DNA of 32,000 nt from an uncultured archaeon. GTDB taxonomy: Archaea > Iainarchaeota > Iainarchaeia > Iainarchaeales > Iainarchaeaceae. Made by a program: the position numbers and the translations under genes. The notes under the pieces are model-generated. The model ran no database searches. It saw only the letters and a program-made list of their open reading frames with translations, and had not been told where the DNA came from. The DNA lies in the NCBI GenBank assembly GCA_964577555.1, contig CAZNZM010000003.1, positions 74,047 through 106,046 on the forward strand, given 5' to 3'. Within the stretch, counting starts at the first letter, position 1. Every line of letters starts with the position of its first letter. Below are positions 5,918-28,681 of the stretch, piece by piece.

Positions 5918-5962
5918 GTAGAATATCACTATTTAATAGTAATGAATTAATAGGTGGGGGTA

Positions 5963-8755: not shown

Positions 8756-8809
8756 GGCGTAATTAAGGCGTTGATTAAAAATATTGAATCAAGTAATAAG
8801 TGATATTTT

Positions 8810-9607: not shown

Positions 9608-11739
9608 AAACCCTAAATGCAATCCTGTTAATAGTTTTGTCAATATTTTCCTGTAGCTTTGTGCAATCCTCGAATAATCCTATATTTGAAGGGATTCCTG
9701 ATATTTCAATATATGAAAACTCCGGCAAATTGCAAAAAATAATTAATCTCAATCAATATGCGACAGGAGAAGAAATAAACCCTCTAAATTATGAAATAAC
9801 AAGACAAACAAACAATAACCTTATAGATTGTTTTATTGAGGAAAACATATTCGTAACGTGCAATGCACCACAAAAAGATTCAATAGGAATGTCTTCAATA
9901 ACCATAAAAGCCACTGATAGTAATGGAGCTTCAAAAGAGGATACTTTCAACATAGTAATATCAAAAAGATTGGAGCCTAAAGAAACAATTGTTGTTCTTG
10001 AAAGAAAAAAGGTAAGCTTGGCTCCAGGCACTTCAATAGCAATAATGTTTGAGGCTACAAACAATACTGGCGAAAAAGAATGCTATGAAATAAATTCAAA
10101 ATTGCCTAATGAAGACTTGACAGAAGTAGAAATAAAACCTGCAAAAAATCAATTTTGCATTGAAGATAAACAAACAATCCAATTTTCAATTTTCATAAGC
10201 GCGTTTGAAAGCGCAAGAACAAAAACTTATTATCCTACTTTTAACATAATTTCTTCCAAAGGACCAACAATAACACAAAACCTTGAAGTGGATGTATCAA
10301 ATACTAGCAACTTTTTAAGCATTGAAAGAGCAAGCGGTTATTTTGTATGTAAAAATCCGTATAAACAGAAAATACAATTGGATTTTCAAAACAACATTGG
10401 AAACGATGCAGGTTCAAGCCAGGAATTCAATTTGTCAGCAAGCAATCCTGTTCTTCTTCCTGAATTTGAGTATCCTAAAATAAGTTTAAGGCCAAGCGAA
10501 CAAGTGGGAATTGGGCTTATGATAAACACAAATCCTGGAACTGCATTTGGAGAATATGCAATAAAAATAACTGCTGAAAACAAAGATTACAAAATAAAAA
10601 GGGAAATAAAAATCAATTTGATTGAATGCGAAGAAGACATAATTGATGTCTATATAAATCCTGAAATAATGGATTTGAAGAAAGGGCAACAAAAAACTGC
10701 AATAATAACCATTTTCAATAAAAGCAAAGAAGAACAGGAAGTATTTGTTAATTCGGAAGGGGATTTGGAAAATAAAGTTGAATCTGTTTTTATAAAATTA
10801 AAACCGCAAGAACAAAAGAAAATAAATTTGGATATAAAAGCAAGGGAACAGGACGAAAAAGGAGAGTATGATTTGATTGTTTATGTTTGGAATTCAAAAG
10901 AAAGTGAAAAGAAAAAAATACAAGTGAATGTTCGTGCAGAGCACAATATAGAATTGGAAATATCTGGCAATGACTATCAAAGAAATATGATTGTTCAAGG
11001 GGAAAACAAAGTATTTGAGTTGACAATTTACAATTATGGGGATTATGAAGAAACAATTAAAGCTTCAGTAAAAGAATTTGGCGGGATAAAAGCAAAACTC
11101 TCGGAAGAAAACTTTAAAATCAAAAAAAACAGCAGCAAAAAAATATATGTTGCAATTACCCCTGGTTATGAAGTTGTTCCAGGAAATTATGAAGTGCCAA
11201 TAACAGCAAGGTCTGATAGTGATGGCGCCAGTCAAAATCTCAAAATAACGATTGTTAAAGCAATGCAAAAAATTGATTTGGATATTGTATCTTATCCTTT
11301 GCAAATAGAAGCGGTTCAAGGGCAAGAAAAGGAAATAAGCCTTGTAATAAAAAACAATTTGCCAAGCGAAGTAAAAAATGTAATAATTTCCATCGCAGAA
11401 AATGGAAAATATTTTATAATGCAGCCAGTGGCAATTGAAAGGCTTAATGGATTTGAATCAGTTGAAATTAAGGCTGGAATACAACCAATTGAAAGCCTTG
11501 AAGATGGAGTTTATCCTGTTAAAATAGAAATAATTTCAAATAATTTTAAAAAAAGCCAAGAAATGGTAATTAAAGTGGAAAGAGAAAAAATTTCGCAAAA
11601 ATTGGCTACTCCTGCAACAGGGCTTTTCAGCCTGACAAGTGGTGGCATAATATTGTCGGCGATAATAGTTTTGATAATAGCAATCCTTGCAGGAATAGGC
11701 GCCAATAAACTTATGCAGGGAAAACCGAATACAACGTGA
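9604..11739 (+). CDS. Secreted, C-terminally anchored surface protein: one cadherin-like repeat plus several COG1470/NEW3-like (CARDB-type) beta-sandwich domains
   Basis: 711 aa with signal peptide MKTLNAILLIVLSIFSCSFVQS. Segments such as AFGEYAIKITAENKDYKIKREIKINL and VPGNYEVPITARSDSDGASQNLKITIVK resemble the (P)G-x-Y-x-(I/V)-x-(I/V)-x-A motif of archaeal COG1470-type envelope proteins. C-terminus ATPATGLFSLTSGGIILSAIIVLIIAILAGIGANKLMQGK. GGTGA SD before the ATG. Confidence 0.85.
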   Translation: MKTLNAILLIVLSIFSCSFVQSSNNPIFEGIPDISIYENSGKLQKIINLNQYATGEEINPLNYEITRQTNNNLIDCFIEENIFVTCNAPQKDSIGMSSITIKATDSNGASKEDTFNIVISKRLEPKETIVVLERKKVSLAPGTSIAIMFEATNNTGEKECYEINSKLPNEDLTEVEIKPAKNQFCIEDKQTIQFSIFISAFESARTKTYYPTFNIISSKGPTITQNLEVDVSNTSNFLSIERASGYFVCKNPYKQKIQLDFQNNIGNDAGSSQEFNLSASNPVLLPEFEYPKISLRPSEQVGIGLMINTNPGTAFGEYAIKITAENKDYKIKREIKINLIECEEDIIDVYINPEIMDLKKGQQKTAIITIFNKSKEEQEVFVNSEGDLENKVESVFIKLKPQEQKKINLDIKAREQDEKGEYDLIVYVWNSKESEKKKIQVNVRAEHNIELEISGNDYQRNMIVQGENKVFELTIYNYGDYEETIKASVKEFGGIKAKLSEENFKIKKNSSKKIYVAITPGYEVVPGNYEVPITARSDSDGASQNLKITIVKAMQKIDLDIVSYPLQIEAVQGQEKEISLVIKNNLPSEVKNVIISIAENGKYFIMQPVAIERLNGFESVEIKAGIQPIESLEDGVYPVKIEIISNNFKKSQEMVIKVEREKISQKLATPATGLFSLTSGGIILSAIIVLIIAILAGIGANKLMQGKPNTT

Positions 11740-13145
11740 AAAATATGCGAAAAAATTTTTTTTCCTTGATAATAATGTTGCTTTTATTAGGGTTTGCTAA
11801 TTCAGAATATTTTGAAGGAAATTGCACAATATCTTTGCAGCCATGTGAAATAACAAGCTTTAAAATTCAAATCTGCAATGATACAAAAGAAAGCAAGGAA
11901 TACAATCCATTCATAATAGGTAATTCAAGTTGGGTTAAAACAGTGCCTGAATCTTTGAATGTGATGCCTGGTGCTTGCGGTAAAATAACAATATTTGCAA
12001 CTCCAAGTTGTTTGGTAAAAAAAGGAGAATATGATTTTGAAGTTGGTGTTAAAGAAATTGAAAGTGTAAAAAAAACTTGTAAACTTAACATTTTAAGTAA
12101 TTCTGCGCCAAAAATTTCAATTCAACCAAGTTACTTGTTTGCAAATAAATGTGGTAATGCGAACTTTTTGATTAACTTGAAAAACAACGAAAGCAAAATT
12201 TCAAGAGTATTGATTGTTTTGCAGACAAATCCTGAAAATATTGTTGGGTTTCCAAGCCAGGAAGTGCTTTTGCGTGGAAACGAAGAAAAAAGCATTCCTG
12301 TGAATTTGGCAATACCTTGTGAAACGCAATTGAAAGAGTTGAATTTTAATGCAACAGCGGTATTGCAGAACAATCAAAAGAGCATTGCTGTTTCATTGAT
12401 AAAAATTTTGGAAGAACATCAAATTGACAGAGAACAAAGCGTTGAAAGCCGAAATATTAACAATGGTTTTGAAGAAGGGGAGTCATCATACAATATTAAT
12501 GCCTTTGAAATCAATCAATTTTTTGAACCTGGAATTGAAATATCAAAAACAGATTTTGTGGAAAAAATTTGTTTAGGAGAAGATAACTTTGTGGATTTAA
12601 TTGTGCATAATAAAACTTCTCAAACATTTGTTGGAAATGTTCGCATAAAAGGCGGCGAAGCTGTTGTGGCAAAAGACACTATTGAAATAAATCCTGGTTC
12701 TAATTCTGAAATAAGATTAATAGTAAATCCGAAAATCACTAGTCATAAAAAATTGCCGTTTAAGAAAAATTTGACAATTGTATTGTCTTCGGGTTATGTA
12801 AGAATAGAAAAGGATTTTACTTTTGATTTTTTGAATTGTTATGTGGGAAGTGAAGGCGTATCAGTTGAAAATTCCCGAGAAGAAGTAAATAAAATTGACT
12901 ATGGGTTAATTAAAGATAATAACGGGCAATCAAACAATGTTGGTGACAAAAATTTGTTTGACGCTAACAAGTTGCAAGGCTTTGACAAAAACTCTAATGT
13001 ACAAAAATTGTTGACTGATGCAATGGCTAATTTGGTAAATAAAACTTTTGGCTTTGCTTCAAAACCTGTTTATTTTTTTGCATTTCTCATTGTGATAACA
13101 ATTGTGGTTATTTTTGTTTCAATTTATAGAAAAATCAATGAATAA
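11736..13145 (+). CDS. Secreted, C-terminally anchored protein (unknown; beta-sandwich-like domains)
   Basis: 469 aa. The GTG at 11736 overlaps the upstream TGA; an alternative ATG at 11745 gives MRKNFFSLIIMLLLLGFANS as signal peptide. C-terminal TM plus basic tail: KPVYFFAFLIVITIVVIFVSIYRKINE. Confidence 0.8.
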   Translation: MKNMRKNFFSLIIMLLLLGFANSEYFEGNCTISLQPCEITSFKIQICNDTKESKEYNPFIIGNSSWVKTVPESLNVMPGACGKITIFATPSCLVKKGEYDFEVGVKEIESVKKTCKLNILSNSAPKISIQPSYLFANKCGNANFLINLKNNESKISRVLIVLQTNPENIVGFPSQEVLLRGNEEKSIPVNLAIPCETQLKELNFNATAVLQNNQKSIAVSLIKILEEHQIDREQSVESRNINNGFEEGESSYNINAFEINQFFEPGIEISKTDFVEKICLGEDNFVDLIVHNKTSQTFVGNVRIKGGEAVVAKDTIEINPGSNSEIRLIVNPKITSHKKLPFKKNLTIVLSSGYVRIEKDFTFDFLNCYVGSEGVSVENSREEVNKIDYGLIKDNNGQSNNVGDKNLFDANKLQGFDKNSNVQKLLTDAMANLVNKTFGFASKPVYFFAFLIVITIVVIFVSIYRKINE

Positions 13146-13339: not shown

Positions 13340-13445
13340 TATTGGGAGTTAAGGGGGTAAGCTATACTGCCATGGGTTGTTGAAATCCAGCTCCGGACGG
13401 GAAACGGAGTCGGCAGATCCCTGGCTTACCTCTTGCATTTTTTTT
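13340..13445 (+). ncRNA. Candidate structured small RNA of unknown class (about 95 nt) ending in a T8 terminator
   Basis: The core 13353-13432 is about 57% G+C in a roughly 33% G+C context. Nested helices read by eye: P1 GGTAAGC 13356-62 / GCTTACC 13424-30 (extendable by G.U and G-C); P2 CTGCC 13367-71 / GGCAG 13412-16; hairpin TGGGT 13373-77 / ATCCA 13385-89; hairpin CTCCG 13391-95 / CGGAG 13405-09. T8 at 13438-13445. There is no ORF. Confidence 0.45.
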
Positions 13446-13526: not shown

Positions 13527-13643
13527 GCGGAGATGGCTGAGTGGTCCAAAGCGCACGCCTGGAATGCAATTTTAAAAATTTGTGAGATTGCCTTGTCAGC
13601 GTGTTCCCGAAAGGGAGCATGGGTTCGAATCCCATTCTCCGCG
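13527..13643 (+). tRNA. tRNA-Ser (anticodon GGA), class II with long variable arm and a 33-nt canonical intron (13565-13597)
   Basis: Acceptor GCGGAGA / TCTCCGC. T arm ATGGG-TTCGAAT-CCCAT. Variable arm TCCC-GAAA-GGGA. Anticodon stem CACGC / GCGTG, with spliced loop CTGGAAA. The intron forms a bulge-helix-bulge motif (see findings). CCA is not encoded. Confidence 0.85.
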
Positions 13644-15110: not shown

Positions 15111-15207
15111 GCCCTTGTAGTATAGGCTGGATAGAATGCAAGGTTCCGGTCCGTTTTGGTTTTCGGGGGATTACCTTGAGACCCGGGTTCAAATCCCGGC
15201 AAGGGCT
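15111..15207 (+). tRNA. tRNA-Arg (anticodon CCG) with a 23-nt canonical intron (15150-15172)
   Basis: Acceptor GCCCTTG / CAAGGGC. T arm CCGGG-TTCAAAT-CCCGG. Anticodon stem CAAGG / CCTTG, with spliced loop TTCCGGA. The D stem is weak (G.U, U-A, A/A, U.G). The intron forms a bulge-helix-bulge motif. CCA is not encoded. Confidence 0.78.
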
Positions 15208-16109: not shown

Positions 16110-17186
16110 TTATTTTTCTTTGAATTTGCCGTTTATTATTTCTTCTCTTATTTTTTTCAATTCTGCATTAACAAAGAATAGGTTGTGGTAACTCAGATAT
16201 TTTCCAGCGTTTTCTTCTTTTGTTTTAAAAAGGTGGTGTAAATATGCTTTAGAATAATTTTTGCAAACCATGCATTCGCATTTTTTGTCTATCGGGTTTT
16301 TGTCGTTTTTGAAAACTGCCGAACCAATGTTTATGTTCCCTTTATGCGTGAAAGCTCTTCCATGTCTTGCTGTTCTTGTCGCAAAGCAAGAGTCGAAACA
16401 ATCCACGCCTAGCGAAACTGCTTTTCTTATGTCTTCTATTGAACCTACTCCCATCAGGTATATTGGTTTGTCTTTTGGAAGCATTGGCAGTGCATTGTTT
16501 ATTGCTTTGTACATGTTTTCTTTTGTTTCTCCTATTGCCAAACCGCCTATGGCGAAACCGTCAAAGCCGAGAGATGATATTTGTTTTGCGCTTTTTTCTC
16601 TTAATGGCTTGTGTGTTCCTCCTTGGCATATTCCGAAAAGCAGTTGGTTTTTTTTGTTGTGGGCTTCAATGCATCTTTTAGCCCAGCTTGTTGTTCTTTG
16701 TACTGCTTCTTCAATTCTCTTTAGTGGTTCTCCTGCTTTTGGAACATCGTCAAGGCACATTGCAACGTCTGAACCTATTTTTTCTTGTATTTTGATTGAG
16801 TATTCTGGCGTGAAAAGGTTTTTTTTTCCTGTAAATGGGTTTCTGAAAGTTACTCCTTCGTCGGAAAGCATTAGTCTGAATTCGTCGCTCAATACTTGGA
16901 ATCCTCCTGAGTCTGTAAATATTGGTTTTTCCCATGAAATGAATTTGTGAAGTCCGCCAAAATCGTTTATAATTTCAACTCCTGGTTTTAATGAGAGTAT
17001 GAATGCGTTGGATATTATGCATTTTGTGCCAATTGCTTTTAGTTCGTCCATTGAAACGTGTTTTACTGATCCTTTGGTTGCTACAGGCATGAAAAATGGT
17101 GTTTCAATGGTGCCGTGTTGTGTTTTTAGCAATCCGGCTCTGCCACTATTTTTGTCTGTTTCTGCTTCTATTTTGAAAGTTTGCAT
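16110..17186 (-). CDS. tgt: tRNA-guanine transglycosylase, catalytic (TIM-barrel) domain only, bacterial/eukaryotic Tgt-like sequence type
   Basis: 358 aa with motifs FMPVATKGSVK, TDSGGFQV, GFAIGGLAIGE and GVDCFDSCFATRTARHGRAFT, plus the zinc site CECMVCKNYSKAYLHHLFK. There is no C-terminal PUA-type extension. Confidence 0.9.
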   Translation of the reverse strand: MQTFKIEAETDKNSGRAGLLKTQHGTIETPFFMPVATKGSVKHVSMDELKAIGTKCIISNAFILSLKPGVEIINDFGGLHKFISWEKPIFTDSGGFQVLSDEFRLMLSDEGVTFRNPFTGKKNLFTPEYSIKIQEKIGSDVAMCLDDVPKAGEPLKRIEEAVQRTTSWAKRCIEAHNKKNQLLFGICQGGTHKPLREKSAKQISSLGFDGFAIGGLAIGETKENMYKAINNALPMLPKDKPIYLMGVGSIEDIRKAVSLGVDCFDSCFATRTARHGRAFTHKGNINIGSAVFKNDKNPIDKKCECMVCKNYSKAYLHHLFKTKEENAGKYLSYHNLFFVNAELKKIREEIINGKFKEK

Positions 17187-17221
17187 TTGTATTAAGCTGG
17201 TATTAATATAATTTAAAAATT

Positions 17222-17971
17222 TACTAGTCGTCTTTTGCCTAACGTGTTTGTTTTTCTTATAAAAAAATTTTCAAATACATTTGCAATTTTTTTGTGTAGG
17301 CTTTGCAAGTCGTTTTTTTAATTTTTGTCATTTTTTTTGATATTTTTATTTTAAAAGTTCAAATCTTTTTGTTTTGGCGAGCCGAGTTTTTTTGTCTTTT
17401 TTGGCAGGTGTTTTTTTGTCAATTTTTTTTGTAATTTTACTTTTTTTCTTAATTTATTTTTTTTAAATTTATTTTGTTTTTGTCTTTGTTTTGGCTGGTT
17501 GTTTTTTTTTGTTTCTTTTTTTTGAGTTGTTTTTTTAGATGTTTGTTTTTGTAAGCTGTTTTTTTGTTTTTTTGTGAGCCAATTTTTTTTGTCATTATTT
17601 TTTTTTGAATTCTTTTTTTTGTCAATTATTTTTTGTCAAGTTGTTTTTTTTATTTTTTTTTAATTTTTTTGCTTGTTTTCAAGTCGATTTATTTTTTAGA
17701 TGTTTTTTTTGTCTTTGGCTTTGGTTTTGTCACGCCAGCTTTTTTGTTTTGTTTTTTTTTTTTGTATTTGGGATTTGGTTTGTACCCCCATCATTTTTTT
17801 TTTTTTTTTTTTGTTGTTTTTTTTGTGAACCGTTTTTTCTAATTTTTTTTGCTTTATTTTTTTTGTTATTTTCAGTGTTGTGTTTGTTTTTTATTTGCAA
17901 TTTGTTTTTTTTGCTAACTGTTTTTTTTGACAATTTTTATTTTTTTTATGAGTTAATTTTTTTTGTTTGTT
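17222..17971 (+). repeat. Oligo(T)-tract array C, the largest (750-bp non-coding spacer)
   Basis: By manual count, roughly three dozen + strand runs of T6 or longer, including T19 (17794-17812) and T12 (17752-17763). Words: GCGAGCC (17377-83), GTGAGCCA (17574-81), GTGAACCG (17825-32). T-run+GTCA(T/A) occurs at about 17323, 17411, 17583, 17613 and 17629. T8-GTCTTTGGCTTTGG at 17703. T-run+AGATG at about 17530 and 17692. Confidence 0.65.
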
Positions 17972-18976
17972 TTATTTGTAAAGCATGCCGTAGTACATGT
18001 TTTCTAATATTGCCCAATATTCTATTCTTTTTCCTGTTGAAGGATCTATTGGCATTTTTTCACTGACAAAATATTCTGGCGGAAAGGAGTAATATGCTAC
18101 TCTTTCTCCTAGTCCTGTGGCAACTATTGCTGGGAATTCTCTTCCAAGTTGGTATTTTTTTTGTTCAAGCCAAAAGTATTCTTTTGGTGGTTCGGTTACG
18201 ATGTTTGAACCGTAATCCAAAACTGCAAGGGTTTTTTGGTACGCGTCGGTGTTTATTTTTACAATGGAAAAATCGCCGTAAAGTTTTAGGTTTTGGGATA
18301 TTCCAAGGGTAAGCCGGTCGTTTTGGTTTAAGACATTCAAAAACCCTGTGTAATCATCGTTGCATTCTTTTATTTCACAGTAATTTCCAATGTATTCAAC
18401 GCCAAGAACGTAATCAAAAGAAACTTGTTTGTTGCCGCTTTTTCTTGCCCAAGGGCTTATGAATGATTCTGAACCTCCTTTTTTTCTTTCTGAATATTTT
18501 AAAAAGTAATTTTTGTCGGATTCGAATTCAGGAGCCGTTGTTCCTGCGTTTCCTATCCAAACAAGTTTTCCTCCATGATTGACGTATTCTTCAAACATTT
18601 TCAATTCGCTTATGCTCATTTCTCTTGCTTTTTCGACAATAACTAATTGGTGTTGTTGGAGCATAGGCAAGGTTACCAATTCTATGTCTTTTAAAGTTAT
18701 GTCTGCCCTGAATTTTGGCGATCTCAATGTTTCGTAAAGAAAATCAGGGTCTCCTATTCCTTCTTCTCCGCTAACTATAAGTATTTTCGGTTTTCCGTTG
18801 GAAATTATTCCGTAATATAAGTCGCATAAGGTAGGGTTGTATGCTCCGCACGAAATAATGTTGAAATGTATGAAGATAAAAAACAGTGTGAATAGTAGTA
18901 TTAAAAGTATTAAAATGTTGATTGCTATGTTGTTTTTTTTTGGTTGGGTTTTTAATTGTTCATTTGGATAAGTCAT
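17972..18976 (-). CDS. N-terminally anchored extracellular protein; possible class-I glutamine-amidotransferase-like (ThuA/DUF4159-like) fold
   Basis: 334 aa. TM segment IAINILILLILLFTLFFIFIHF. The pattern KPKILIVSGEEGIGDPDF ... QHQLVIVEKAREMSISELKMFEEYVNHGGKLVWIGNAG resembles flavodoxin-like GATase1/ThuA modules. The fold assignment is tentative. Confidence 0.7.
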   Translation of the reverse strand: MTYPNEQLKTQPKKNNIAINILILLILLFTLFFIFIHFNIISCGAYNPTLCDLYYGIISNGKPKILIVSGEEGIGDPDFLYETLRSPKFRADITLKDIELVTLPMLQQHQLVIVEKAREMSISELKMFEEYVNHGGKLVWIGNAGTTAPEFESDKNYFLKYSERKKGGSESFISPWARKSGNKQVSFDYVLGVEYIGNYCEIKECNDDYTGFLNVLNQNDRLTLGISQNLKLYGDFSIVKINTDAYQKTLAVLDYGSNIVTEPPKEYFWLEQKKYQLGREFPAIVATGLGERVAYYSFPPEYFVSEKMPIDPSTGKRIEYWAILENMYYGMLYK

Positions 18977-18989
18977 ATTATAGGAACTA

Positions 18990-19203
18990 CTGATGCTTAA
19001 TTAATTTTTTCGTATTTTGGCGTTTTGCATGGATTTTTTGTTTTTGGTTTTTATAAAGTGTTTTGTTGCTTGAGCTAATACAAACCATTTTTTTTATTTT
19101 TTTTTATGTTTTTTTTTTAATTTTGTGTTTTGGTTGTTATGGTTGGTTAAGCTAGTTTTTTTTGTTGTTTTAAATCAAGGTTTGTTGGTCTTTTTATTTT
19201 TTT
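18990..19203 (+). repeat. Oligo(T)-tract array B (short spacer between the 1122-aa gene stop and the 334-aa gene promoter)
   Basis: T6-T10 runs closed by G or A, for example CATTTTTTTTATTTTTTTTTATGTTTTTTTTTTAA at about 19087-19120. It lacks an exact GCGAGCC word. Confidence 0.45.
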
Positions 19204-22200
19204 TTAATTTGAAAAGCATGTGTTGGCGTTGAATCCTTCGTTGGATAGGTTGTTTAGTTTGTCTCTGAAATTAGAGATTATTTCTTGTTCGTTCCAGTAT
19301 ATTCCTACGTTTAGAGGTGCTTTTGAGTATCCTTGTTCGATTGTTCCGTATGCTATGCATGTTTGTTCGTTTTCTATTTTGTTTAATGTATCGCTTATTG
19401 TCCATAATGCTTGGCTTGGGTTGTCGAGTGTGATTTCAGTATCTGTTCCTTTTATGTATCTTGCACCGCTGATATTTCCATTGTCATTTAATGTTGGAAC
19501 GTATATTACTCCTTGGTTTTGGCAGGCGTTTTTTATTCTTATTTGGTCGCCTTTACTTGGGGCATAAAGTATTGTTTCAAGAGCAATGTCGTTTTTGGAA
19601 GTGCTTTCCCTTCCAAATACATATATTACGCGTGTGTTTTCCAATTCTTTGGCTATGTCGCATTTTGGGCCAGTGTATGAGCTTAGTTGTGAGTCTGTTC
19701 CTATTAGTTCTGGCAATGGTTTTCGAGTGTCAAGATCGTTGCATATCGGGGTTTCATCTTTTAGATATGCTATTTCCACTAGCCTTGCAAGACTTGGGCC
19801 TGCATCTATGCTTCCTTTGCTATCTTTTATAATGTATCCCATGGCGTTTTTTTTGCCATCGTTTTCTGCTTTGAAAATTATTGGTATTGGCAGCGAGGCA
19901 GCGAATGTCATGGAGTATTCTGGGGTTTGGTTGTTTGTTTCTTTTTTTGAGATTGAAAGTATTTTTCCTGGTTCGTTTTTGCTTAAACTTATAAAGTCGT
20001 TTTTGCGTTCTACTTCAATTATTGCAATTGGTTTGGAGTCGTTTGTTGTTGGAATTGTATAAACGTCAAAGTCGTGCCTTTCGTTCAATATAAAAAATGG
20101 GACTTGGCTGTTTTGGTTTTTTAGTTTGAAGCCAACTCCGTAGCCGTCTCTATGCAATACGTCTCCGGTTTTTCCAACGTAGGCGTCGATTGGCAGATAG
20201 TATAGCAGGTTTGCTGGGAATTCTTCGTCAGTTATTTTTGTGAATTTGACTAATATTTTTGCTTTTGGGTTTCCTTCATTATCAAATAATTTTTGGAATT
20301 TTGAATCGTCCAATTCAAACGAAATTGTAATCAAGTATTTTCCTGGTTGGAGTATTGGTTCTGGCGTTGAGAATACAAGCCTTGTTTGGTCTTTGAAATA
20401 TTTGTCCCAGGACATTTGTTTGGCGTTTCCTGTAGTATAGTATTTGATTATTTGTGCTTGGTTGTCAAAAAATCGTTCACGCATAAAGGCGTCAAAGTCG
20501 TTTCTGAAGTCTTGAGAAAAGCCGTCTCGCATCATATAAACTGGGAAAGATAGTTTAGAATTGGCTTGTGCAATGTTTCCTTCAGATATTAAATCGTTTA
20601 TTGTGTTGAGTTTTTTTATTAGCATTATTGAAAATTGTGTTGAATCGCATACGTTATAATTGCCTAAATTGTCTGGAGAACAAAAGTTTTCTGAAATGTT
20701 GTTGGGTCTCCATTCGTATTTTATTTTTGGTTTTACGTCTTTGCCTGTAAATGCAGTATTTCTGCCTGTTGAAATAATAGAGCCATCAAGTTCTCGGCAT
20801 ATGCCTGCTGAAACGGCTTTGATTTCAATCATGTATTTTTCCTTGTCAATCCAAGCCAAATTTGTATTTGTTATTATTGGCTCGTCAGTTATTACTTTTC
20901 TTGAAGATGTTCTTCCGTAAACTCTTGCACTGTTTGGGTTTTCTTGTATTATAAAAATTTCGGTGTCGTTGCTTGCTATTCTTTGTCCTAAAGTGTTAGT
21001 AGTGAATTTTTCTCTTGTTAATGTATTTGTGAAGCTGACTTTTCCGATTGTGAAAGAAACCATGCCGTGGTTGCCAATTGGAAGTTCAGGTGAGAACAAG
21101 CCAAGGTCTTTTGTACCTTCAAAAATATTGATTGTTGCTTTTTGTAATGGTGTTTCGGCTTTTGTATAGCTTTGAGGTCCAAAAGAGATGTCAATAATTC
21201 TGTCTTGAACTGTTTCTCCGTCAAAAGTTTTTCCTATGCGAAAGAAATCGCTTTTGTAATTGTTGCCTATACTTGGATCATTTACTCCTATTATGCCTTC
21301 CATTTTCCAAGTGTAATTTTTGAATGTTTTGCCTTCTGGGTCTATTTCCCCTGGAACAGTGAATTCTGCTAATAGTGATTCTTCTATGTCGCCTGTGTGT
21401 GAATTATTGTAATATTTGAGTGTTTCTGGTTTGTTGCATGCGTCGCCAGAATTTGGAACGGCTACGCTGTGAAAGCTTCTTGACACCACTAGTCTTCCTG
21501 TTTCGTCATAAATTTCAAAGAAATGAACTGGGACGCCGTATGATGTTGTTTCGGGGCTGTCGTTGCAGAATTGTGCGTAATATTTTTTTCCAGGTTCTAC
21601 TTGGAAACTTCCTGTTTTTAAAAATGGGGTGATTGCAATTGCGTTTACCGTGAATTCCACGTCCATATTGATTGGCTCTATTTTTTTTCTTGAATCGGCT
21701 GTTTTTACCCCGTATATGTCTGAATATGTTATTTTTAGGGATAGTTGTTCTTGTTGTGGTGAAACGTTTGGTCTTTGAGCTGTTGCTTTCATTTTCAAAA
21801 TATAACTTGCGTTTCTGCCTAATTCCAAACCTGGTTTGAAATCTGGAAAACTGCAATCTTTCAAATACCCTCGCGAACCTCCGGTGCTGCAAAAACCTTC
21901 TGCGGGTTCCACGCTGTCTATTTTTATATCTACGTTGCTTTCATTTTTTACTTCCCAGAAGAAATTCACTTCTTTTTCCGTTTCGTTTCCCCAAATGCTT
22001 TTAAGCAATCCTATTGTGTTGCTTTTTGCTGGTTTTATGCTTATTTGTCCTGGCACTACTATTATTTGTATATCCGCGTATTTTACCCAGTCATTAGGGT
22101 TTGTCGGATTTGCATTTATTTTTCTTGTGTATTCTATTCTGAAATCATATGTTCCGGCTTGGTTGAAAGGCAATGATTCCAAATAATCAGTTTTGATTCC

Positions 22201-22572
22201 ATGCAATACGTTTCCTCCGTCGCATGCTTCGGCGTTTGTAATTTCATAGCCTTTTATCCATTCTTCTTCGGTTCCAAGCCCTGTTATTTTTACGACTTTT
22301 AAAGGCATTTTGACTTCTCTTCTTGCGCCATCCACGCATTGGTCTATGTATGTTGAAATGTTTGTCAGTTTTAGTTTTGTTCCTTCTGGCACAACAAATG
22401 TGCGTTTATTGTTGTTGGATGTTATTTCTTTGAATTCAGGTGTAAAAGTTATTGTCATGGATGGCGATGTATTGATTTCAAAGTAATGGCAGTGCCTGCC
22501 TGCAAAAACAGGTGAAGAAAATAGCGTTAGGATTATTGGCAATAATAATGCAATTGCTTCAAAGCGTTTCAT
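19204..22572 (-). CDS. Very large secreted protein (about 1122 aa), Cys-containing, no membrane anchor, no recognisable domain
   Basis: The ORF track extends to 22599. I prefer the ATG at 22572 because AGGAGG (minus strand, 22580-22585) lies 7 nt upstream and the product starts with a signal peptide, MKRFEAIALLLPIILTLFSSPVFA. It overlaps the upstream gene by 14 nt. Confidence 0.85.
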   Translation of the reverse strand: MKRFEAIALLLPIILTLFSSPVFAGRHCHYFEINTSPSMTITFTPEFKEITSNNNKRTFVVPEGTKLKLTNISTYIDQCVDGARREVKMPLKVVKITGLGTEEEWIKGYEITNAEACDGGNVLHGIKTDYLESLPFNQAGTYDFRIEYTRKINANPTNPNDWVKYADIQIIVVPGQISIKPAKSNTIGLLKSIWGNETEKEVNFFWEVKNESNVDIKIDSVEPAEGFCSTGGSRGYLKDCSFPDFKPGLELGRNASYILKMKATAQRPNVSPQQEQLSLKITYSDIYGVKTADSRKKIEPINMDVEFTVNAIAITPFLKTGSFQVEPGKKYYAQFCNDSPETTSYGVPVHFFEIYDETGRLVVSRSFHSVAVPNSGDACNKPETLKYYNNSHTGDIEESLLAEFTVPGEIDPEGKTFKNYTWKMEGIIGVNDPSIGNNYKSDFFRIGKTFDGETVQDRIIDISFGPQSYTKAETPLQKATINIFEGTKDLGLFSPELPIGNHGMVSFTIGKVSFTNTLTREKFTTNTLGQRIASNDTEIFIIQENPNSARVYGRTSSRKVITDEPIITNTNLAWIDKEKYMIEIKAVSAGICRELDGSIISTGRNTAFTGKDVKPKIKYEWRPNNISENFCSPDNLGNYNVCDSTQFSIMLIKKLNTINDLISEGNIAQANSKLSFPVYMMRDGFSQDFRNDFDAFMRERFFDNQAQIIKYYTTGNAKQMSWDKYFKDQTRLVFSTPEPILQPGKYLITISFELDDSKFQKLFDNEGNPKAKILVKFTKITDEEFPANLLYYLPIDAYVGKTGDVLHRDGYGVGFKLKNQNSQVPFFILNERHDFDVYTIPTTNDSKPIAIIEVERKNDFISLSKNEPGKILSISKKETNNQTPEYSMTFAASLPIPIIFKAENDGKKNAMGYIIKDSKGSIDAGPSLARLVEIAYLKDETPICNDLDTRKPLPELIGTDSQLSSYTGPKCDIAKELENTRVIYVFGRESTSKNDIALETILYAPSKGDQIRIKNACQNQGVIYVPTLNDNGNISGARYIKGTDTEITLDNPSQALWTISDTLNKIENEQTCIAYGTIEQGYSKAPLNVGIYWNEQEIISNFRDKLNNLSNEGFNANTCFSN

Positions 22573-24274
22573 TTTTTTGCCTCCTTGCAGACAAAGCAAT
22601 TAGAACTAATAAGACAATTATGATTGCGGCAAGTATGATAAATTCAAATTGAACACTGAATTGTTCTTTGTAATTTTCAATTTGTGTGCTTGATTCTTCT
22701 TCACATGTTCCTTTACAGCAAATTCCTTTTTCTGATGCAATGTCAATTTTGTTTCCGTTGCATTTTGTGTTTGATTCGCAAAGCACTCCGCCAAGTTCGT
22801 TGCACGATTTTGGTTTTTCAACTGTTAAATCTATTTCTTTTGATATTTGTTTGTTGTTTTTGAAGTCGTTTACAAGCACTAAATATTTTTTTCTTTCAAT
22901 TGGGTAATATTTTTCAAGGCAATTGCCGGAATCGAAAGATTCATAATATCTTTCTAGGGAATTTTCTGCTTCAACAACCGAAATTGACAAATTAATGTCT
23001 TCTTCGTTGCCGTTTGCTGCAAAGCCGCAAGCCTTTATTTTGAGTTCTGATGGCTCTGAAAAAATCGTTTCAAGCCTGATTTCTCCCTTTTTTCCGTTAT
23101 AATCTGTTTCTATTGGAAATATTTCAAAGCAATACTTGTCGTGGGTTGTGTTGTCTTTTTCTATTGCGCTGCATACTGTGAATTTTTGGTATGCCAAATC
23201 AGGCGTGAAATTTGCGTTTATTTCTTTTTCAATTTCTTTGAATTTTAAAGCAGGTATGTGTTGTTTTCCTTCGAATATTTTTTTTGCGTCTTTTTCTATC
23301 CAAATTGAAACGTTGAAATCGTAAAAATCCGGTTTTGTGTAATGGTCCGGAGAAGAGCCTATTAATGCATAAATTTTGACTGGTTTGTTTGGTTTTAATT
23401 CATCTCCATAAAAAGCCATTTTTTTTATTTTTGCGGTGGGTCCTTCAACTATTGCTCTATTTCTGTAAAGCGAGATTGTTTTGCCGTCTTTGTCCATTAA
23501 CTCTATTCTGATTGCGTATGCGCCTGGCATTGCTGGTGCTTTGAGTGTTAAATTGACTTGTTTTTCTTCGTTGGCTTCCAATTCAAGGTTTGTTTTTGCT
23601 TCTGTTAAAAATTTTTCGCATGCTGTGTCGTCCCAATCGCATAAACCAGTCCAAAGAACAAGGTTTTGTAATTTTTGATTTGACTGGTTTTTCAAGAAAA
23701 TTTTACCTTCAATGTTTTGTTCTGGTTTAACCCAAGTTCCGATTGGTCCTGTGTCTCCGTTGAATTCTGTTTTTGTTCTTATTATGGTTGCGTTAGGGAA
23801 AGAGCCTGTTCCTTGTACTTTGAATTCTTTTTCAACAGGGTTGAGGAAAATATGAGGTATTCCGGTTATTGGGGATCTTTTTGTTTTGAAGTATGCTAAA
23901 ATAGTGTAAGTTCCTTCTTTGATATCTTTTGGCAGTGGGATTTCAAATGGGATTTTTTTTTCTTGGTTGGGCAACAATGCTATTGGGAACTTTTTTTCAA
24001 GGAAAATGTTTCCATTGTCTGAGAGTTGGGATGGATAACTTATGCTGCCTTTTGGTCCTGAAGCGATTTCTACAATTATTTCAGAATCATAAAATCCTGC
24101 TGAATCAGAATTGCCTGCTCTAAAATATCCTTTTAAATTTTCTCCCGCCTTGAGATTGTCTTTTTCAAGGTTTATTTCTACAAATCCTGTAAAAAATATG
24201 CTGGCTGATTGGGTTGGCATTGCCGAGAGAATCAGGATTATAATGCACATTGTTTTTGCAAAATAGGTTGCCAC
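22559..24274 (-). CDS. Secreted protein with CARDB-like beta-sandwich domains, C-terminal Cys-rich module and TM anchor
   Basis: 571 aa. The GTG start directly abuts the upstream TAA (TAAGTG). Signal peptide MATYFAKTMCIIILILSAMPTQSAS. C-terminal module CNELGGVLCESNTKCNGNKIDIASEKGICCKGTCEE, then FIILAAIIIVLLVLIALSARRQK. Confidence 0.85.
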   Translation of the reverse strand: MATYFAKTMCIIILILSAMPTQSASIFFTGFVEINLEKDNLKAGENLKGYFRAGNSDSAGFYDSEIIVEIASGPKGSISYPSQLSDNGNIFLEKKFPIALLPNQEKKIPFEIPLPKDIKEGTYTILAYFKTKRSPITGIPHIFLNPVEKEFKVQGTGSFPNATIIRTKTEFNGDTGPIGTWVKPEQNIEGKIFLKNQSNQKLQNLVLWTGLCDWDDTACEKFLTEAKTNLELEANEEKQVNLTLKAPAMPGAYAIRIELMDKDGKTISLYRNRAIVEGPTAKIKKMAFYGDELKPNKPVKIYALIGSSPDHYTKPDFYDFNVSIWIEKDAKKIFEGKQHIPALKFKEIEKEINANFTPDLAYQKFTVCSAIEKDNTTHDKYCFEIFPIETDYNGKKGEIRLETIFSEPSELKIKACGFAANGNEEDINLSISVVEAENSLERYYESFDSGNCLEKYYPIERKKYLVLVNDFKNNKQISKEIDLTVEKPKSCNELGGVLCESNTKCNGNKIDIASEKGICCKGTCEEESSTQIENYKEQFSVQFEFIILAAIIIVLLVLIALSARRQKNETL

Positions 24275-27200
24275 TTAATCAACTCCTTTATAGTAATCTT
24301 CAATTGTAATTAAAAAGAATGGATCTTCTAGGTTGTTTGTCAGGCCTGTGTTGGAAAGTATCAGTATTTCTTCTCTTGAGTTTGGGGTTTTGTTTATTTG
24401 CAATGGTGTTATATTGAGTTTTCTTGTGAATTTGTTGGCAAGGTCATTGTAAGGGTATGATTTGTTCAGGTTGTTTTCAGCTGGATCTTCTAGGCCTGTG
24501 TATGCTTTGTTTATTATGGCTACTTTCTCTTTGCCGTTTAAGAAGTCAAGCGTGTATTTGTTGTTGAGTTCGTCGCCCGCAAGCATTTCTGGGTTAATGC
24601 GTGTTATTACTAGTCTTGCTGTTTCGTCGTTAATTATAACTTTTACTATTCCTGCTCTATAAATTTTTGTTTCGCCTTTGTATTTTGCCAAAACATAAAT
24701 CGGGTGTATCCCTAATTGCTTATTGGATGATACGTTGAAAGTCGCTTTGTTTCCAGGTGTTAGCGTAATAGGTTCTGATTCGTTTAATGTTTCCGAAAGC
24801 CTTGTTATTGAATCTTTTATCACTATGTCGCTTTCCGTGTCTTTTGCAAGTTTTATTTCTATTTCTTTTTCGCATTCGTTTTGTATATTAAAATTGGTTG
24901 TATTTTTTCTTTGTATTTGAAGGATTAATTCATTTTCTATTTCTGGTGTTTCATTGTTTTCTTTTGAAAATTTTACGCATTGTATTGTTTCTTTTTGCGG
25001 CAAAGGGATTGACACGGTTTGCAATTCTGCGCTTGCGGTTTTATAATTTGGCAGTTTTTCAGCTTTAACAATTATTTTTTTGCCGCTTTCAAAAGGCGGC
25101 ACCGTCAAATTTACTATTCCTGAATTGTTTGTCAGGTAATTTGTGTTTTTTGATATTTGCGTGTCCGGGTCTTGAGGGTTTTCATACATTTTTATTTCGG
25201 CTTCGTTTATTGGGTTGTTTCTTTCATCTTTTGCGGTGGCAAGAACCATTGTTGTTATTCCTGCAGTGATTGTAGTTGGTTGCAGTGTCAGTAAAATGTT
25301 TTTTAATCCTTCAACTGCTAAATTGGCTATAAATGTGTCTCCTTTGGTTCCAAGGTTCAAGCTTAAATTCAAGTCTGCTTCTTGCAAAGGTTTTTTTGCA
25401 ACGAATTCAACTCTGTATTCTTGTCCTGTTATTTGTTGGTTTGCGCCGAATTCTCCTATTGTTCTCTCGTTTCCAACAGTTATTTCAAGGGGGTTTAAAG
25501 CGTTTTTGTTTTTTACTGTCATTTTGACGTTTGAATAGCTTTTTCCTGATAAATTCAAAAGCGAGTATGTTAACGTATATGTTTTTCCTTCAAGCAGCTT
25601 GTAAATTTTTTGTTCTTCCAGCGGAATGGTTCTTTCTTCATCAATCAAATTTACTGATGTGAAAACGATTCCGCAATTAGATTTGCATATTGGGGCATCA
25701 AGTCTTGCACTCCAAAAATATAATTCTCTTGGTTTTGGTTTAAATGTTTCAACACCGTTAATTGTTCCTTTTGCACCCCAGCGCATTTCTATGATTGTAT
25801 CTGGTTTTTGTGTTTCTGGAATTTCTTTTATTTTTACTGCCGCTGAAATTATGTAAGTGGTTTTTTCGGATGTGCCTAATGAAATTACTGCTTGTTTAGC
25901 GTCGCCAGAGGTTATGGAACAATCAGCATAGTCGTTTTCAGGGTTGAAGCATCCTGAATAAACCACTTCTGTTGATGCCGCATTTATTCCTGTTATTACT
26001 ATTTTGCTGTCATTGGAGTTTGTTTGGTTTTGAAGCCCGGCTCTGAAAACCGCTTTGAGGTTTTCTATTTTGTCTCCTGTTTGAAGCCTGAATTTGAAAA
26101 CGTATTTTTTTCCTGATTCTATTTTGTCTGCAATTCTTCCATCTTCTTTGAAAACGTTTTCCAATTCTATTTTGAATTCTGGATTTGCTGGGGGTTCTGG
26201 CAGTTTGACAAGTGTTACTGTTTCTATTTTTTTTACGTCTGGTTCTATTGTTATTTGTCCTGTTTCAGTTTTCAAATACCCGTTTTTTTGTATTATTAGT
26301 TTTGGTTTTGCATCTACTTTGAATTTTACTGATTCTGTCAATCCGTTGTTTTGAGTGATTTTTTTGGCTAGTTCTTTTCCGTTTATTGAATCTATGAAAC
26401 TGACGTTTGCACTTTGCACTGCTTTGCCGTCAACGTCAACTACTTTGACTGCCAATTCGCCGTTAGCCAGTACAATGGTTATTGGCAATTCTAGAGTTCT
26501 GCCTGGTCTGAGGTCTGCTTTTGCCGATTTGCCTGTGTTTTTTGCACCATCCACGTATTTCACTGCTTCTGCGTAATAATTGCCCGGTGGCATGTTGTTT
26601 GCTTCAAATATTCCGTTTGAATCGGTTTCGCCTTCAACGAAAATAATTGGGTTGGATTTTTCATAAATAGCCACGCTTGCGTTTGGTACGCTCTTTCTTG
26701 AATAGTCATTGACAATTACTTTGATTTTGCCCGAGTTAGATTGTTCAGCTTTTTCGATTTTGATTTCTTGCGGCTGTGTGCTGTCAATTGGTTTGAGATC
26801 TAAATGCGGTATTATTTTTCTGACATATTCTGGGTGGCTTGCTATTGCTGAATAGTTTTTGTCAGGTTCCAGGTTTATGAAAGAGACAATTCCGTCAGAG
26901 CCAGATGTTTTTAATACGCCTGAGTTTTGCAAGCCGATTATTAGGTTTGTATTGACTCCTTCTACTGCTGTTGAGGATTTTTTGTCAATAAATTTCAAGA
27001 GTGCCTTTTTTGCATTGTTTGGTTTTTCCAAGAGTATTTCTATTGTTTTTGTGTTTCCTTCTGAAAATTCAGCAGCTCCTATTGTGAATTCGTTGCTTTG
27101 TCCTATTGTATAACCTGTGTTTTCTGGAGGAATTGCTTCTGCAATATAAGTTCCGAGTGGGACGTTTGGAATTATTTTGGATCCGCTGTCGTCTGTGTAG

Positions 27201-28183: not shown

Positions 28184-28210
28184 GAAAAAACCCCGCTTTT
28201 ATTTTGGACT

Positions 28211-28225
28211 CTTAAATAAAGGGTT
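28211..28225 (-). promoter_or_regulatory. Candidate TATA box of the giant-protein operon
   Basis: The minus strand reads CCTTTATTTAAGAG about 28-35 nt upstream of the GTG at 28183, implying a short or absent leader. Confidence 0.3.
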
Positions 28226-28289
28226 ATAAAGTATTTAAAGTAATTTATGGTTGTTTAATAGCTTAAAAATCGTTTTTTCTTTGTTTTAC

Positions 28290-28660
28290 GTTATTTAAGT
28301 CATTTTTTTCACTTTTAAAAAAATCAAAATTTTTGTTGTCTATTTTGGTAGTCGGCTTTTGGAATTTTTTTCGCCAAGCCAATTTTTGTATTTTTTTTGT
28401 CTTTGGTTTGGTTTTTTTTTGCGAGCCATTTTTTTTTAGTCATGTTTATTTTTTTTTTAATTAAAATTGTTTTGTTTTTTTTTGATTTTTTTTTATTTTG
28501 ATATTTGCGGACTTTTTTTGTCATTTTTTTTGTTTTTGCCCTGTTTTTTTTGTTATCTGATTTTTTTATTTTTTAATTTTTGAATTTTTTTTTAGATACA
28601 GATTATTTTTTTGTCTTTGTCTTGCTTTTTTGTTGTTTTTCAAACTAAACTTTTTTATAT
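28290..28660 (+). repeat. Oligo(T)-tract array D (inside the about 500-bp divergent promoter region)
   Basis: T7-T10 runs with CGCCAAGCCAA (28371-81), T8-GTCTTTGGTTTGG-T9-GCGAGCCA-T9-AGTCATG (28391-28444), GCGGAC-T7-GTCAT-T8-G (28508-28533) and T9-AGATAC (about 28586-28600). Confidence 0.6.
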
Positions 28661-28681
28661 TTTAATATCCTAGTTAATGAA

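Follow-up and report, generated by a model that had tools for sequence, protein, structure and literature searches.

How did a spacer between two minus-strand genes of an archaeon come to hold several hundred base pairs of oligo-T runs, almost all on one strand, and does this DNA do anything for the genes beside it? The question is raised by array C, an intergenic T-rich array of a Candidatus Iainarchaeum-like DPANN archaeon. The genomes of DPANN archaea are small and compact, and one would not expect about 6% of 40 kb to consist of fast-changing, one-strand oligo-T arrays. There are at least five of these, all T-rich on the + strand. Four of these arrays, array C among them, lie in the window, i.e., the whole stretch of 32,000 nucleotides that was analyzed.

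Extent and composition of array C

The gap that contains array C spans positions 17187 to 17971 (785 bp). Downstream of the array lies tgt (16110 to 17186, minus strand), encoding a queuine-type tRNA-guanine transglycosylase (TGT; Pfam PF01702, E = 5.8e-138), and upstream lies a gene (17972 to 18976, minus strand) for a 334-amino-acid protein that is predicted to have a membrane segment at its N terminus and falls in no Pfam family. The position of the latter gene is kept in a sister species. The initial annotation had placed the array between the stop of the 334-aa gene and the tgt promoter, and the coordinates agree with this. The 785-bp spacer consists of 500 T, 117 A, 108 G and 60 C (64% T). 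Where roughly three dozen T runs of six or longer and almost no A runs had been estimated, we counted 35 T6+ runs and a single A6+ run on the + strand. The extent first proposed (17222 to 17971) had to be narrowed: it does contain a real array, but the lineage-specific core covers only 17296 to 17951 (+ strand; about 656 bp of T7-9 runs split by short, mostly G-initial words), the rest being conserved flanks. These limits were given by BLAST against the sister locus (L206), in which the alignment stops at 17295 and restarts at 17952, the core being missing from the sister.

On the tgt side, the promoter-proximal spacer of tgt (17187 to 17295, minus strand) aligns with the sister spacer and is the putative tgt promoter region; a TATA-like element, TTTAAATTATATTA (17204 to 17217, minus strand), was read from the sequence 17 nt before the tgt ATG. 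The same segment carries the sole minus-strand oligo-T of the spacer, a T7 at 17261 to 17267, which is the single A6+ run of the + strand; the sister has A5 at the aligned position (T5 on the minus strand). This T7 may terminate transcription of the 334-aa gene, in which case array C would lie inside the 3' untranslated region of that gene. On the opposite side, the alignment with the sister delimits a conserved 3' flank of the 334-aa gene (17952 to 17971, + strand) carrying AATTTTTTTTGT. Array C is bracketed by AATTTTTTTGT (17284 to 17294) and the AATTTTTTTTGT of this flank, for which the sister has one AAATTTTTTGT only.

Repeat units and word vocabulary

Every copy of the composite unit listed in the initial annotation was found at its position. 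In array C, these are GCGAGCCGAG-T7-GTC (17377 to 17396, + strand), of which an identical 20-mer occurs in the sister's array at locus D, GTGAGCCAA-T8-GTCA (17574 to 17594, + strand), and a degenerate unit, GTGAACCG-T6-CTAA (17825 to 17842, + strand). The 7-mer GCGAGCC had been reported four times, with an expectation of less than one copy per window; it occurs exactly four times in the window, always on the + strand and always within arrays, and 0.89 copies would be expected. Its enrichment over the whole window is modest (at least 4 copies in 3 of 100 shuffles), array B2 has no copy, and the other arrays have only one or two exact copies each. GGCTCGC has zero copies in the window. Within the arrays, observed counts lie far above first-order Markov expectation for AGCC (11 versus 1.5), GCCA (13 versus 2.8), GTCA (12 versus 2.1), GAGCC (6 versus 0.25), and CGAGCC (4 versus 0.01), and for each of these five words the observed count was reached in 0 of 300 Markov simulations. 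The word vocabulary of the arrays is strongly nonrandom.

The block T8-GTCTTTGG(C)TTTGG, described as common to arrays C and D, is present in both. Unit spacing, described as irregular, ranges from 6 to 47 bp with a mode near 12. The lengths of the T runs are bimodal, with a T8 peak and no decay, and peak at T7-8 in the arrays. The proposal that array C is neither a CRISPR array nor a fixed-period satellite stands on both counts, but the array is partly satellite, owing to its nested tandem duplications. Tandem Repeats Finder returned periods of 53 bp (2.3 copies, 80%), 31 bp (2.3 copies, 84%) and 28 bp (3.1 copies, 76%), arranged head to tail as in other tandem repeats; these periods are local and nested, and no one period runs through the whole array. 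The 53-bp repeat (17703 to 17821, + strand; 2.3 copies, 80% matches) includes a T19 run.

Other arrays of the family

Array A (395 to 751, + strand) extends from the metK stop to the promoter of a ybaK-like minus-strand gene. Array B2 (18977 to 19203, + strand) is short, lies between the minus-strand genes for a 1131-aa protein and the 334-aa protein, and consists of expansions that flank a conserved core on both sides. Array D (28263 to 28645, + strand), the sole array also found in the sister species, lies between the divergent promoters of a 1302-aa surface-protein operon and of a GH130 gene; compared with the outgroup, this is the junction of an inversion. Array E (on L084), 4 kb beyond the window, lies between convergent genes, immediately 3' of a + strand gene. 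Of the five arrays, three have tandem neighbors, one has divergent and one has convergent neighbors. The arrays had been described as ending just upstream of a minus-strand TATA box; this applies to the four in-window arrays, which end about 70 to 100 bp upstream of a minus-strand promoter, but not to array E with its convergent neighbors.

Arrays at different loci share sequence in register. A block of array C (17472 to 17600, + strand) is paralogous to array E (L084:17010-17135), with a 42-nt exact match at 17503 to 17544 and about 130 bp of colinear similarity. Against a unit-shuffle control, this block has z = 4.5, with its score reached in 0 of 100 shuffles, and the similarities of the C-E and A-E pairs lie above all 100 unit-order shuffles.

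Comparison with the sister species and more distant relatives

The sister species has about 86% DNA identity to the archaeon that bears array C (hereafter the host), 95% protein identity in TGT, and a matching local gene order. It has only one of the five arrays, and its promoters are intact. Its spacer at the array C locus measures 114 bp versus 785 bp in the host, that of array B2 78 versus 227 bp, and that of array A 103 versus 405 bp, while at the fourth locus that has no array in the sister the spacer is 9 bp versus 501 bp. At locus D, the sister carries an array with the same polarity and the same words (GCGAGCC and T7-GTCA). Further out, neither arrays nor GCGAGCC occur in an outgroup genus of equal A+T richness, a search of 1.21 Mb of sequence from relatives gave 0 matches to the unit pattern, and nothing like the arrays was seen in the synteny around tgt in 80 GTDB species, where the few stretches rich in T or A are coding regions of low complexity. 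On these sequence comparisons, the array family is known only from the host species and its sister. A metagenome-wide scan for T7-GCGAGCC-N0-3-T6, in a collection outside of which the host's samples fall, gave 82 matches, with 0 in a T-rich array. The best-looking of them is a bacterial hairpin terminator, GGCTCGC-T7-GCGAGCC-T6. The array blocks that are shared between loci had no match in IMG/VR viral contigs, and nothing pointed to an origin from viruses or mobile elements. Other trial patterns were far too common on viral contigs.

Three outcomes had been named at the outset as speaking against the initial annotation: no motif enrichment, an assembly artifact, and no conservation in any relative. 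None of these was obtained, since the words are enriched, the assemblies agree, and the words recur in a relative at one locus where both species have an array.

Turnover and reliability of the assembly

The arrays change quickly. Between strains of the sister species, which have 23 differences in 4930 bp of flank (99.5% identity), the locus-D arrays cannot be aligned past the proximal 95 bp or so. In the host, four assemblies of the strain over about 31 kb differ by one SNP and one 53-bp unit only, both inside array C. The 53-bp indel is exactly one unit of the tandem repeat at 17703 to 17821: one contig (L001) has the deletion there, and another (L002) ends there, at the T19 run. Copy number is polymorphic in that the 53-bp unit is present or absent within a strain and the sister arrays are scrambled between strains. 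The 53-bp difference within the strain may instead be an assembly collapse.

Comparison with independent assemblies showed arrays A (JGI 3300043177) and B2 and D (JGI 3300037501 and Logan SRR12686701) to be base-for-base identical. That the array is an artifact of low-complexity reads might be suspected from the assembly that stops at the T19 run, the one without the 53-bp unit, and the sister contigs that break repeatedly within the locus-D array. We give this next to no credence, given that the independent assemblies, from three different samples, agree fully wherever they cover arrays A, B2 and D and the greater part of array C.

Likeness to known systems

Several identities were tried for array C and rejected. 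As a structured RNA, it folds no better than shuffled controls (z of -0.30 for the minus strand and -0.17 for the + strand), and Rfam had no match in the spacer. As a coding sequence, it offers open frames that are poly-Phe or poly-Lys artifacts, and the length of the indel, 53 bp, is not divisible by 3. The word GCGAGCC-A-T(n) was considered as a copied tRNA 3' end with its terminator; this found no support, as the two tRNAs of the window have other acceptor stems and GGCTCGC does not occur. Repeat finders returned only degenerate T-rich families (60 to 85% identity, irregular spacing) rather than CRISPR, and no cas genes lie nearby. CRISPR arrays consist of constant-length direct repeats (about 24 to 48 bp) and unique spacers of similar length; the arrays described here resemble them in having repeated short words amid variable intergenic archaeal DNA, but have neither a constant-length repeat nor unique, similar-sized spacers.

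A closer likeness is to micro- and minisatellites, cryptically simple sequence and contingency loci, with which the arrays share low complexity and nested tandem duplications, together with unit copy-number change in the population, reshuffling between strains, and contig breaks. Unlike satellites, they have no one fixed period and form a family dispersed over at least five loci with multi-unit blocks in common; unlike bacterial contingency loci, they lie outside the promoter core and the reading frame, the sites at which contingency tracts work. Poly(dA:dT) tracts of eukaryotic promoters (yeast, Plasmodium, Dictyostelium) are likewise indel-prone dA:dT runs near promoters in an A+T-rich genome. 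The present arrays, in contrast, consist of many short T7-9 runs with conserved G/C words and uniform strand polarity, belong to an archaeal host, and in one case have no adjacent promoter. Like REP/BIME elements and MITEs, they represent a clade-specific, short intergenic unit that is clustered and variably present between close relatives, but they have no palindromes, hairpins or terminal inverted repeats, their unit is mostly homopolymer, and all copies seen keep to one orientation.

Origin of array C and alternative explanations

We lean towards reading array C as clade-specific, hypervariable, noncoding simple-sequence DNA produced by slippage and inter-array copying, and as most likely not a conserved regulatory element. 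The proposed unit has a T7-9 run and, after it, a short, usually G-initial word from a small vocabulary (GTCA..., G(C/T)(G/A)AGCC(A/G) and GGC...). As suggested by the pattern of variation, length would change through replication slippage or unequal exchange between adjacent units, and multi-unit blocks would be copied into other T-run spacers by homology- or microhomology-guided processes, e.g., gene conversion or template switching. A strand rich in T could grow only as one rich in T, and this rule, together with the contig-wide G+T richness of noncoding DNA on the + strand, would account for all arrays being T-rich on that strand. Of the 14 intergenic gaps of the window, 12 have more G than C and 11 have more T than A, irrespective of gene orientation, and the sister species shows the same trend. 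The explanation is weakened in that five of five arrays on one strand would arise by chance in 1 of 16 cases, and five arrays are too few to tell a replication-linked cause from coincidence. The nested 28-, 31- and 53-bp periods, the two-sided expansions of array B2, and the direct repeat of array C are consistent with growth by duplication.

As for transcription, array C would, as a side effect, present about 35 consecutive archaeal oligo-T termination signals on the + strand, and antisense transcripts are therefore predicted not to cross it. The minus strand would meet no such signal until the conserved T7 at 17261 to 17267, and transcription of the 334-aa gene probably runs on through the array, giving a long A-rich 3' tail and leaving the tgt promoter undisturbed. 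The comparative data weigh against an indispensable role of the arrays, because four of the five are missing in the sister and the shared one is scrambled between 99.5%-identical strains. Several observations count against the simple-sequence reading. GCGAGCC and T7-GTCA are kept in both species despite full reshuffling, to which concerted evolution or binding-site selection can give rise; the T8-peaked run lengths would fit selection for efficient termination signals; and about 6% of 40 kb in a streamlined DPANN genome is much DNA to be carried for nothing.

The initial annotation had offered stacked terminators, chromatin exclusion or bending, and binding sites as explanations. In the first of these, the arrays would be selected one-way barriers, whose stacked oligo-T runs stop + strand transcription, antisense or read-in, with near certainty and let minus-strand transcription pass. 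As a description of the expected effect on archaeal RNA polymerase this is correct, and it agrees with the roughly 35 T6+ runs on one strand versus almost none on the other, with their length peak at T7-8, and with array E lying directly 3' of a + strand gene. In Methanococcus, moreover, termination efficacy grows with the number of U tracts, to which aCPSF1 binds (PMC8716108). Archaeal oligo-U/oligo-T terminators, both intrinsic and dependent on aCPSF1/FttA, resemble the arrays in T-run length, and more tracts make for stronger termination, but they normally comprise one or two U4+ tracts plus the termination factor aCPSF1 (PMC8716108). Because one or two tracts are enough in known terminators, 35 are far beyond need; known terminators also have one to a few sense-strand tracts within about 30 nt of the gene end, whereas array C has about 35 over 650 bp. 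Tracts of the kind expected of a terminator (T4-8) are present many times over on the + strand, and a position just downstream of a gene is found for array E only. Both neighbors of array C are minus-strand genes, and the tracts of arrays A, B2 and C, unlike those of known terminators, are antisense to both neighbors, have no preceding + strand gene, and are missing at the orthologous sites of the sister. Four of the five arrays are dispensable in the sister with identical gene neighbors, and array D sits between divergent promoters, where no flanking transcript would cross. T5+ runs downstream of clade genes are not sense-enriched either; at 574 gene ends of relatives, the counts are 387 versus 324, hardly sense-biased, and the idea of T runs as sense-strand terminators in the clade found no support. 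Termination as the reason for the arrays received no positive support, and we regard a selected barrier as unlikely, though worth keeping in mind. An effect on chromatin, in which poly(dA:dT) arrays exclude histones or chromatin proteins near promoters and array length tunes the expression of neighbors in the manner of a contingency locus, would fit the ends of the four in-window arrays some 70 to 100 bp upstream of minus-strand promoters, the differences between near-identical strains, and the large secreted proteins and glycosyltransferases among the neighbors. We hold it to be improbable: array E has no adjoining promoter, the runs lie outside the promoter core, the site where homopolymer length is known to switch expression, and the neighbors include housekeeping genes (metK and tgt). 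The histone-exclusion proposal obtained no positive support, with four of five arrays missing from a sister whose promoters are intact. The bending version fails because there is no helical phasing at 10 to 11 bp: a periodogram of arrays A, C, D and E against a unit-shuffled control gave z of -1.0 to +1.2 at 10 to 11.5 bp, by which phased A tracts were rejected.

Two further alternatives are a binding factor and a mobile element. If the arrays were site clusters for a factor recognizing GGCTCGC/GCGAGCC or T-run-GTCA, e.g., a nucleoid, replication or priming protein, one would understand why GCGAGCC and its relatives are strongly overrepresented in arrays, in one orientation and flanked by T runs, and why the words persist in both species amid reshuffling. 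The motif is enriched and kept across the species; the hypothesized factor gained no positive support, there are only one or two exact copies per array and none in B2, spacing is irregular, and the orthologous spacers of the sister work without the words. A binding factor is not needed, since the common descent of units accounts for the recurrence of words, and we consider site clusters highly improbable. Insertion of a nonautonomous mobile element (MITE- or REP-like) that lands in T runs and duplicates its target would explain presence and absence between the species at four loci, the AATTTTTTTGT direct repeat that brackets array C and is single in the sister, and the colinear blocks common to copies at different loci. 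The bracket could equally be produced by expansion in place, however, and the copies vary in length between 227 and 785 bp with only partial colinearity, array B2 consists of several separate expansions about its conserved core, no transposase was seen in about 40 kb, and the shared blocks lack an IMG/VR match. A MITE with inverted termini was rejected, as there are no terminal inverted repeats or hairpins and the inverted matches are trivial pairings of A runs with T runs. We judge an inserted element very unlikely.

Implications

If the simple-sequence reading holds, such DNA can undergo explosive growth in one species and leave the sister species compact, and the arrays offer a test case for distinguishing tolerated junk from a regulatory device. 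They are natural constructs in which dozens of archaeal termination signals point the same way, and genomes that are otherwise collinear differ in whether they carry them. The arrays so provide a ready test of how oligo-T tracts, aCPSF1 and the chromatin of archaea behave in the face of extreme poly(dA:dT). A bolder interpretation, to which we assign a small chance, is that the family represents a new archaeal intergenic repeat, a T-run/GCGAGCC/T7-9/GTCA module that spreads in a single orientation and is kept as an orientation-specific transcription barrier, or as a fast-mutating tuning knob for neighboring promoters, those of surface-protein and glycan operons included, in a DPANN archaeon that depends on another organism, with the conserved G/C word as a putative landing site for a protein. 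In practical terms, such arrays break short-read assemblies and draw spurious gene calls. The JGI annotation has lysine-rich "genes" of 48 to 63 aa within array C.

Array C is a genuine, strand-polarised array

The TGT protein encoded in the window was at most 72% identical to those of GTDB species representatives, and the organism is a DPANN archaeon near Candidatus Iainarchaeum. Two JGI samples (3300037501 and 3300043177) and Logan run SRR12686701 also contain this DNA. Array C lies in a 785-bp spacer (17187-17971) between the start of tgt (16110-17186, minus strand; PF01702, E = 5.8e-138) and the stop of a minus-strand gene for a 334-aa protein (17972-18976). The spacer contains 500 T, 117 A, 108 G, and 60 C. 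The initial annotation had described about three dozen T6+ runs, nearly no A runs, and irregular unit spacing; we counted 35 T6+ runs and one A6+ run, with T-runs in the arrays starting 6 to 47 bp apart (mode of ~12), and every listed copy of the unit (a T-run plus a short G/C-containing word, e.g., GCGAGCC or GTCA) was found in place. That description was a good one and is here confirmed and sharpened.

Outside array C, alignment of the window to the other assemblies gave zero differences over ~31 kb, arrays A, B2, and D included. Array C itself showed two, a G>T at 17524 and 53 bp missing from the 3300037501 contig, which correspond to one unit of a 53-bp tandem repeat at 17703-17821 (Tandem Repeats Finder). 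The 3300043177 contig terminates at a T19 run of array C. Since the other assemblies match outside these two differences, the array is genuine.

Several identities were rejected for array C. Repeat finding excluded a CRISPR array, as the initial annotation had held, and a MITE with inverted ends was also rejected. A folded RNA was dismissed (folding z-scores of -0.30 and -0.17; no Rfam match), and searches of viral contigs for the array sequence returned no match. The proposed DNA bending by poly(dA:dT) tracts failed, as T-runs lacked 10- to 11-bp phasing relative to a unit-shuffle control. Coding function was rejected as well, the open frames being artefacts of homopolymers and the indel measuring 53 bp. 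JGI calls genes of 63 and 48 aa here (17449-17625 and 17730-17933, minus strand; 9307-9498 and 9592-9738 of the 3300037501 contig), whose frames translate to lysine- and asparagine-rich strings and are almost certainly spurious.

The arrays form a family with shared words and polarity

At least five arrays occur in ~40 kb of the genome, jointly ~6% of its DNA, and each is 58 to 64% T on the + strand. Arrays A (395-751), B2 (18977-19203), and C lie between tandem minus-strand genes, array D (~28263-28645) between divergent genes, and array E (16763-17263 of contig L084 from the same organism, 4 kb past the window) between convergent genes, so that polarity tracks the chromosome strand rather than gene orientation. 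The rule placing array ends upstream of a minus-strand TATA box holds for the four window arrays but not for array E. Of the 14 intergenic gaps in the window, 12 have more G than C and 11 have more T than A; cumulative GC skew climbs monotonically, and the same tendencies appear in the non-coding DNA of a sister species. Because five arrays would fall on one strand by chance 1 time in 16, a replication-linked cause is a lead and not a result.

The word GCGAGCC had been expected less than once in the window and noticed only outside coding DNA. All four copies are indeed on the + strand within T-rich spacers, against 0.89 expected, and its reverse complement has no copy in the whole window. This window-wide excess is modest (3 of 100 shuffles attain four copies). 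Within the arrays, enrichment over random controls is strong: AGCC (11 observed/1.5 expected), GCCA (13/2.8), GTCA (12/2.1), GAGCC (6/0.25), and CGAGCC (4/0.01) reached their observed counts in none of 300 simulations under a first-order Markov model of the arrays themselves. The base following a T-run is G in 63% of cases. T-run lengths are bimodal with a peak at T8 (T6, 13; T7, 20; T8, 32; T9, 13), whereas those in coding DNA fall steadily.

Arrays C and E have a 42-nt exact block in common, within ~130 bp of colinear similarity. Relative to 100 shuffles of unit order that retained T-runs and vocabulary, the C-E (z = 4.5) and A-E (z = 4.3) scores each exceeded all shuffles; A-D and D-E scores were marginal. 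These results point to multi-unit blocks copied between loci 18 kb apart and indicate arrays related by descent.

Arrays differ in presence between close relatives

The sister species, known from JGI 3300010938 and two further samples, has TGT and MetK 95% identical to those of the window, DNA ~84 to 87% identical, and the same local gene order. Its spacer at the array C locus is only 114 bp. The alignment runs to 17295 and resumes from 17952; therefore, the DNA flanking the 334-aa gene on its 3' side and the tgt promoter region, with a predicted TATA-like element, TTTAAATTATATTA (17204-17217, minus strand), are conserved, and 656 bp are extra here. The extra DNA is flanked by AATTTTTTTGT and AATTTTTTTTGT, in place of which the sister carries one AAATTTTTTGT. 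Likewise, the sister has 103 bp versus ~405 bp at array A, 9 bp versus 501 bp at array E, and 78 bp versus 227 bp at array B2, where the expansions flank a conserved core on both sides. No T- or A-rich non-coding stretch was present in ~33 kb of its main contig.

A search for the same words in related genomes succeeded in the sister, at locus D. All four of its GH130 contigs start 76 to 270 bp upstream of GH130, within T-rich DNA of the same + strand polarity and vocabulary; the three longer ones each hold two GCGAGCC copies plus GAGCC and T7-GTCA. The 20-mer GCGAGCCGAGTTTTTTTGTC is common to this array and array C. Between two sister strains, only 23 of 4930 positions in the flanks differ, and their locus D arrays are unalignable past the ~95 bp adjoining the GH130 promoter.

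In 42 kb of the next relative, JAWANB01 (GC 0.32), arrays and GCGAGCC were both absent. There, GH130 and the gene for a large Big_1-like surface protein are co-directional and 42 bp apart (L422:9955-11140), whereas the two are divergent in the window (28184-28681) and the sister, placing array D at the junction of an inversion in the clade that unites the window and the sister. Across 1.21 Mb around tgt of 80 other species, the unit pattern had no match. One T-flanked GCGAGCC outside the lineage, the single background match inspected (L385:4575-4620, an unrelated metagenome contig), belongs to a hairpin terminator of bacterial type, AAAAAAAAGGCTCGC-T7-GCGAGCC-T6, as its 3' arm, which fits chance matches to the motif being common in public data.

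Origin and possible roles of the arrays

We class the arrays as a dispersed, clade-specific, strand-polarised family of simple-sequence or minisatellite DNA made of terminator-like units. On balance, we lean towards hypervariable simple-sequence DNA in which an oligo-T unit is combined with a few mostly G-initial words. We observed presence or absence across species of the same local gene order, inter-strain scrambling, a unit-sized population indel, nested tandem duplications, and inter-locus blocks. The array that both species carry at locus D dates the family to their split or earlier; since then, it has expanded into at least four further spacers in the window lineage. Arrays may change by slippage or unequal exchange within themselves, blocks could move between them by homology- or microhomology-guided copying, and polarity might be inherited from T-run seeds on an already G+T-rich strand.

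A selected one-way transcription barrier is an unlikely alternative, slightly weakened by T5+ runs downstream of genes in relatives being hardly sense-biased (387 versus 324 over 574 gene ends); these runs lean antisense in the sister and the outgroup. Less likely still is chromatin exclusion or the tuning of expression, and we give little credence to a mobile element and slightly less to a putative cluster of binding sites. These alternatives stay alive because the G/C words survive while the arrays are totally reshuffled, T-run lengths peak instead of decaying, and the arrays are much DNA for a streamlined genome, all of which speaks against a purely neutral reading. We consider an assembly artefact very unlikely. 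Most probably, the arrays are unstable DNA that lacks a conserved role, and the comparative sequence data make an indispensable role unlikely.

An effect on transcription is nevertheless predicted. In archaea, one or two U4+ tracts act with aCPSF1 in termination, which improves as tracts are added (PMC8716108); on this basis, the effect of array C would be one-way, and its + strand should be impassable. The minus strand of the spacer lacks oligo-T before a T7 at 17261-17267 (T5 in the sister), so the 334-aa gene probably acquires an A-rich 3' tail of ~700 nt, leaving the tgt promoter intact. Such arrays are unusual in a DPANN genome and serve as a natural experiment.

Other features of the window

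A ~95-nt structured element closing in a T8 run (13345-13435, + strand; MFE of -39.8 kcal/mol, z = -2.8, 3 of 200 shuffles as good) is nearly invariant in the sister, where flanking coding DNA is ~84 to 87% identical. It matched no Rfam family at E <= 1 and is a candidate for a small RNA missed by annotation, a short way upstream of an intron-containing tRNA gene (13527-13643, + strand, 117 nt). Rfam detected only this tRNA, and ARAGORN only a second intron-containing one, tRNA-Arg(CCG) (15111-15207, + strand, 97 nt). MetK (752-1915, minus strand), with three bacterial S-AdoMet synthetase domains, and TGT, a queuine-type enzyme ~45% identical to Clostridia homologues, are both bacterial-type, consistent with old gene transfer into DPANN archaea. 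A carotenoid cluster (2654-5651; phytoene desaturase, two lycopene-cyclase halves, and phytoene synthase) is absent from the sister, in which the HTH-CBS gene adjoins a 930-aa surface-protein gene; 3.3 kb have thus been gained or lost between these close relatives. Finally, two long operons (19204-28183, minus strand; 5954-13145, + strand) encode very large secreted or membrane-anchored proteins, the longest 1302 aa, whose only domain matches, to Ig-like or Big domains, are faint, and the gene order of both is kept in the sister species and the outgroup.
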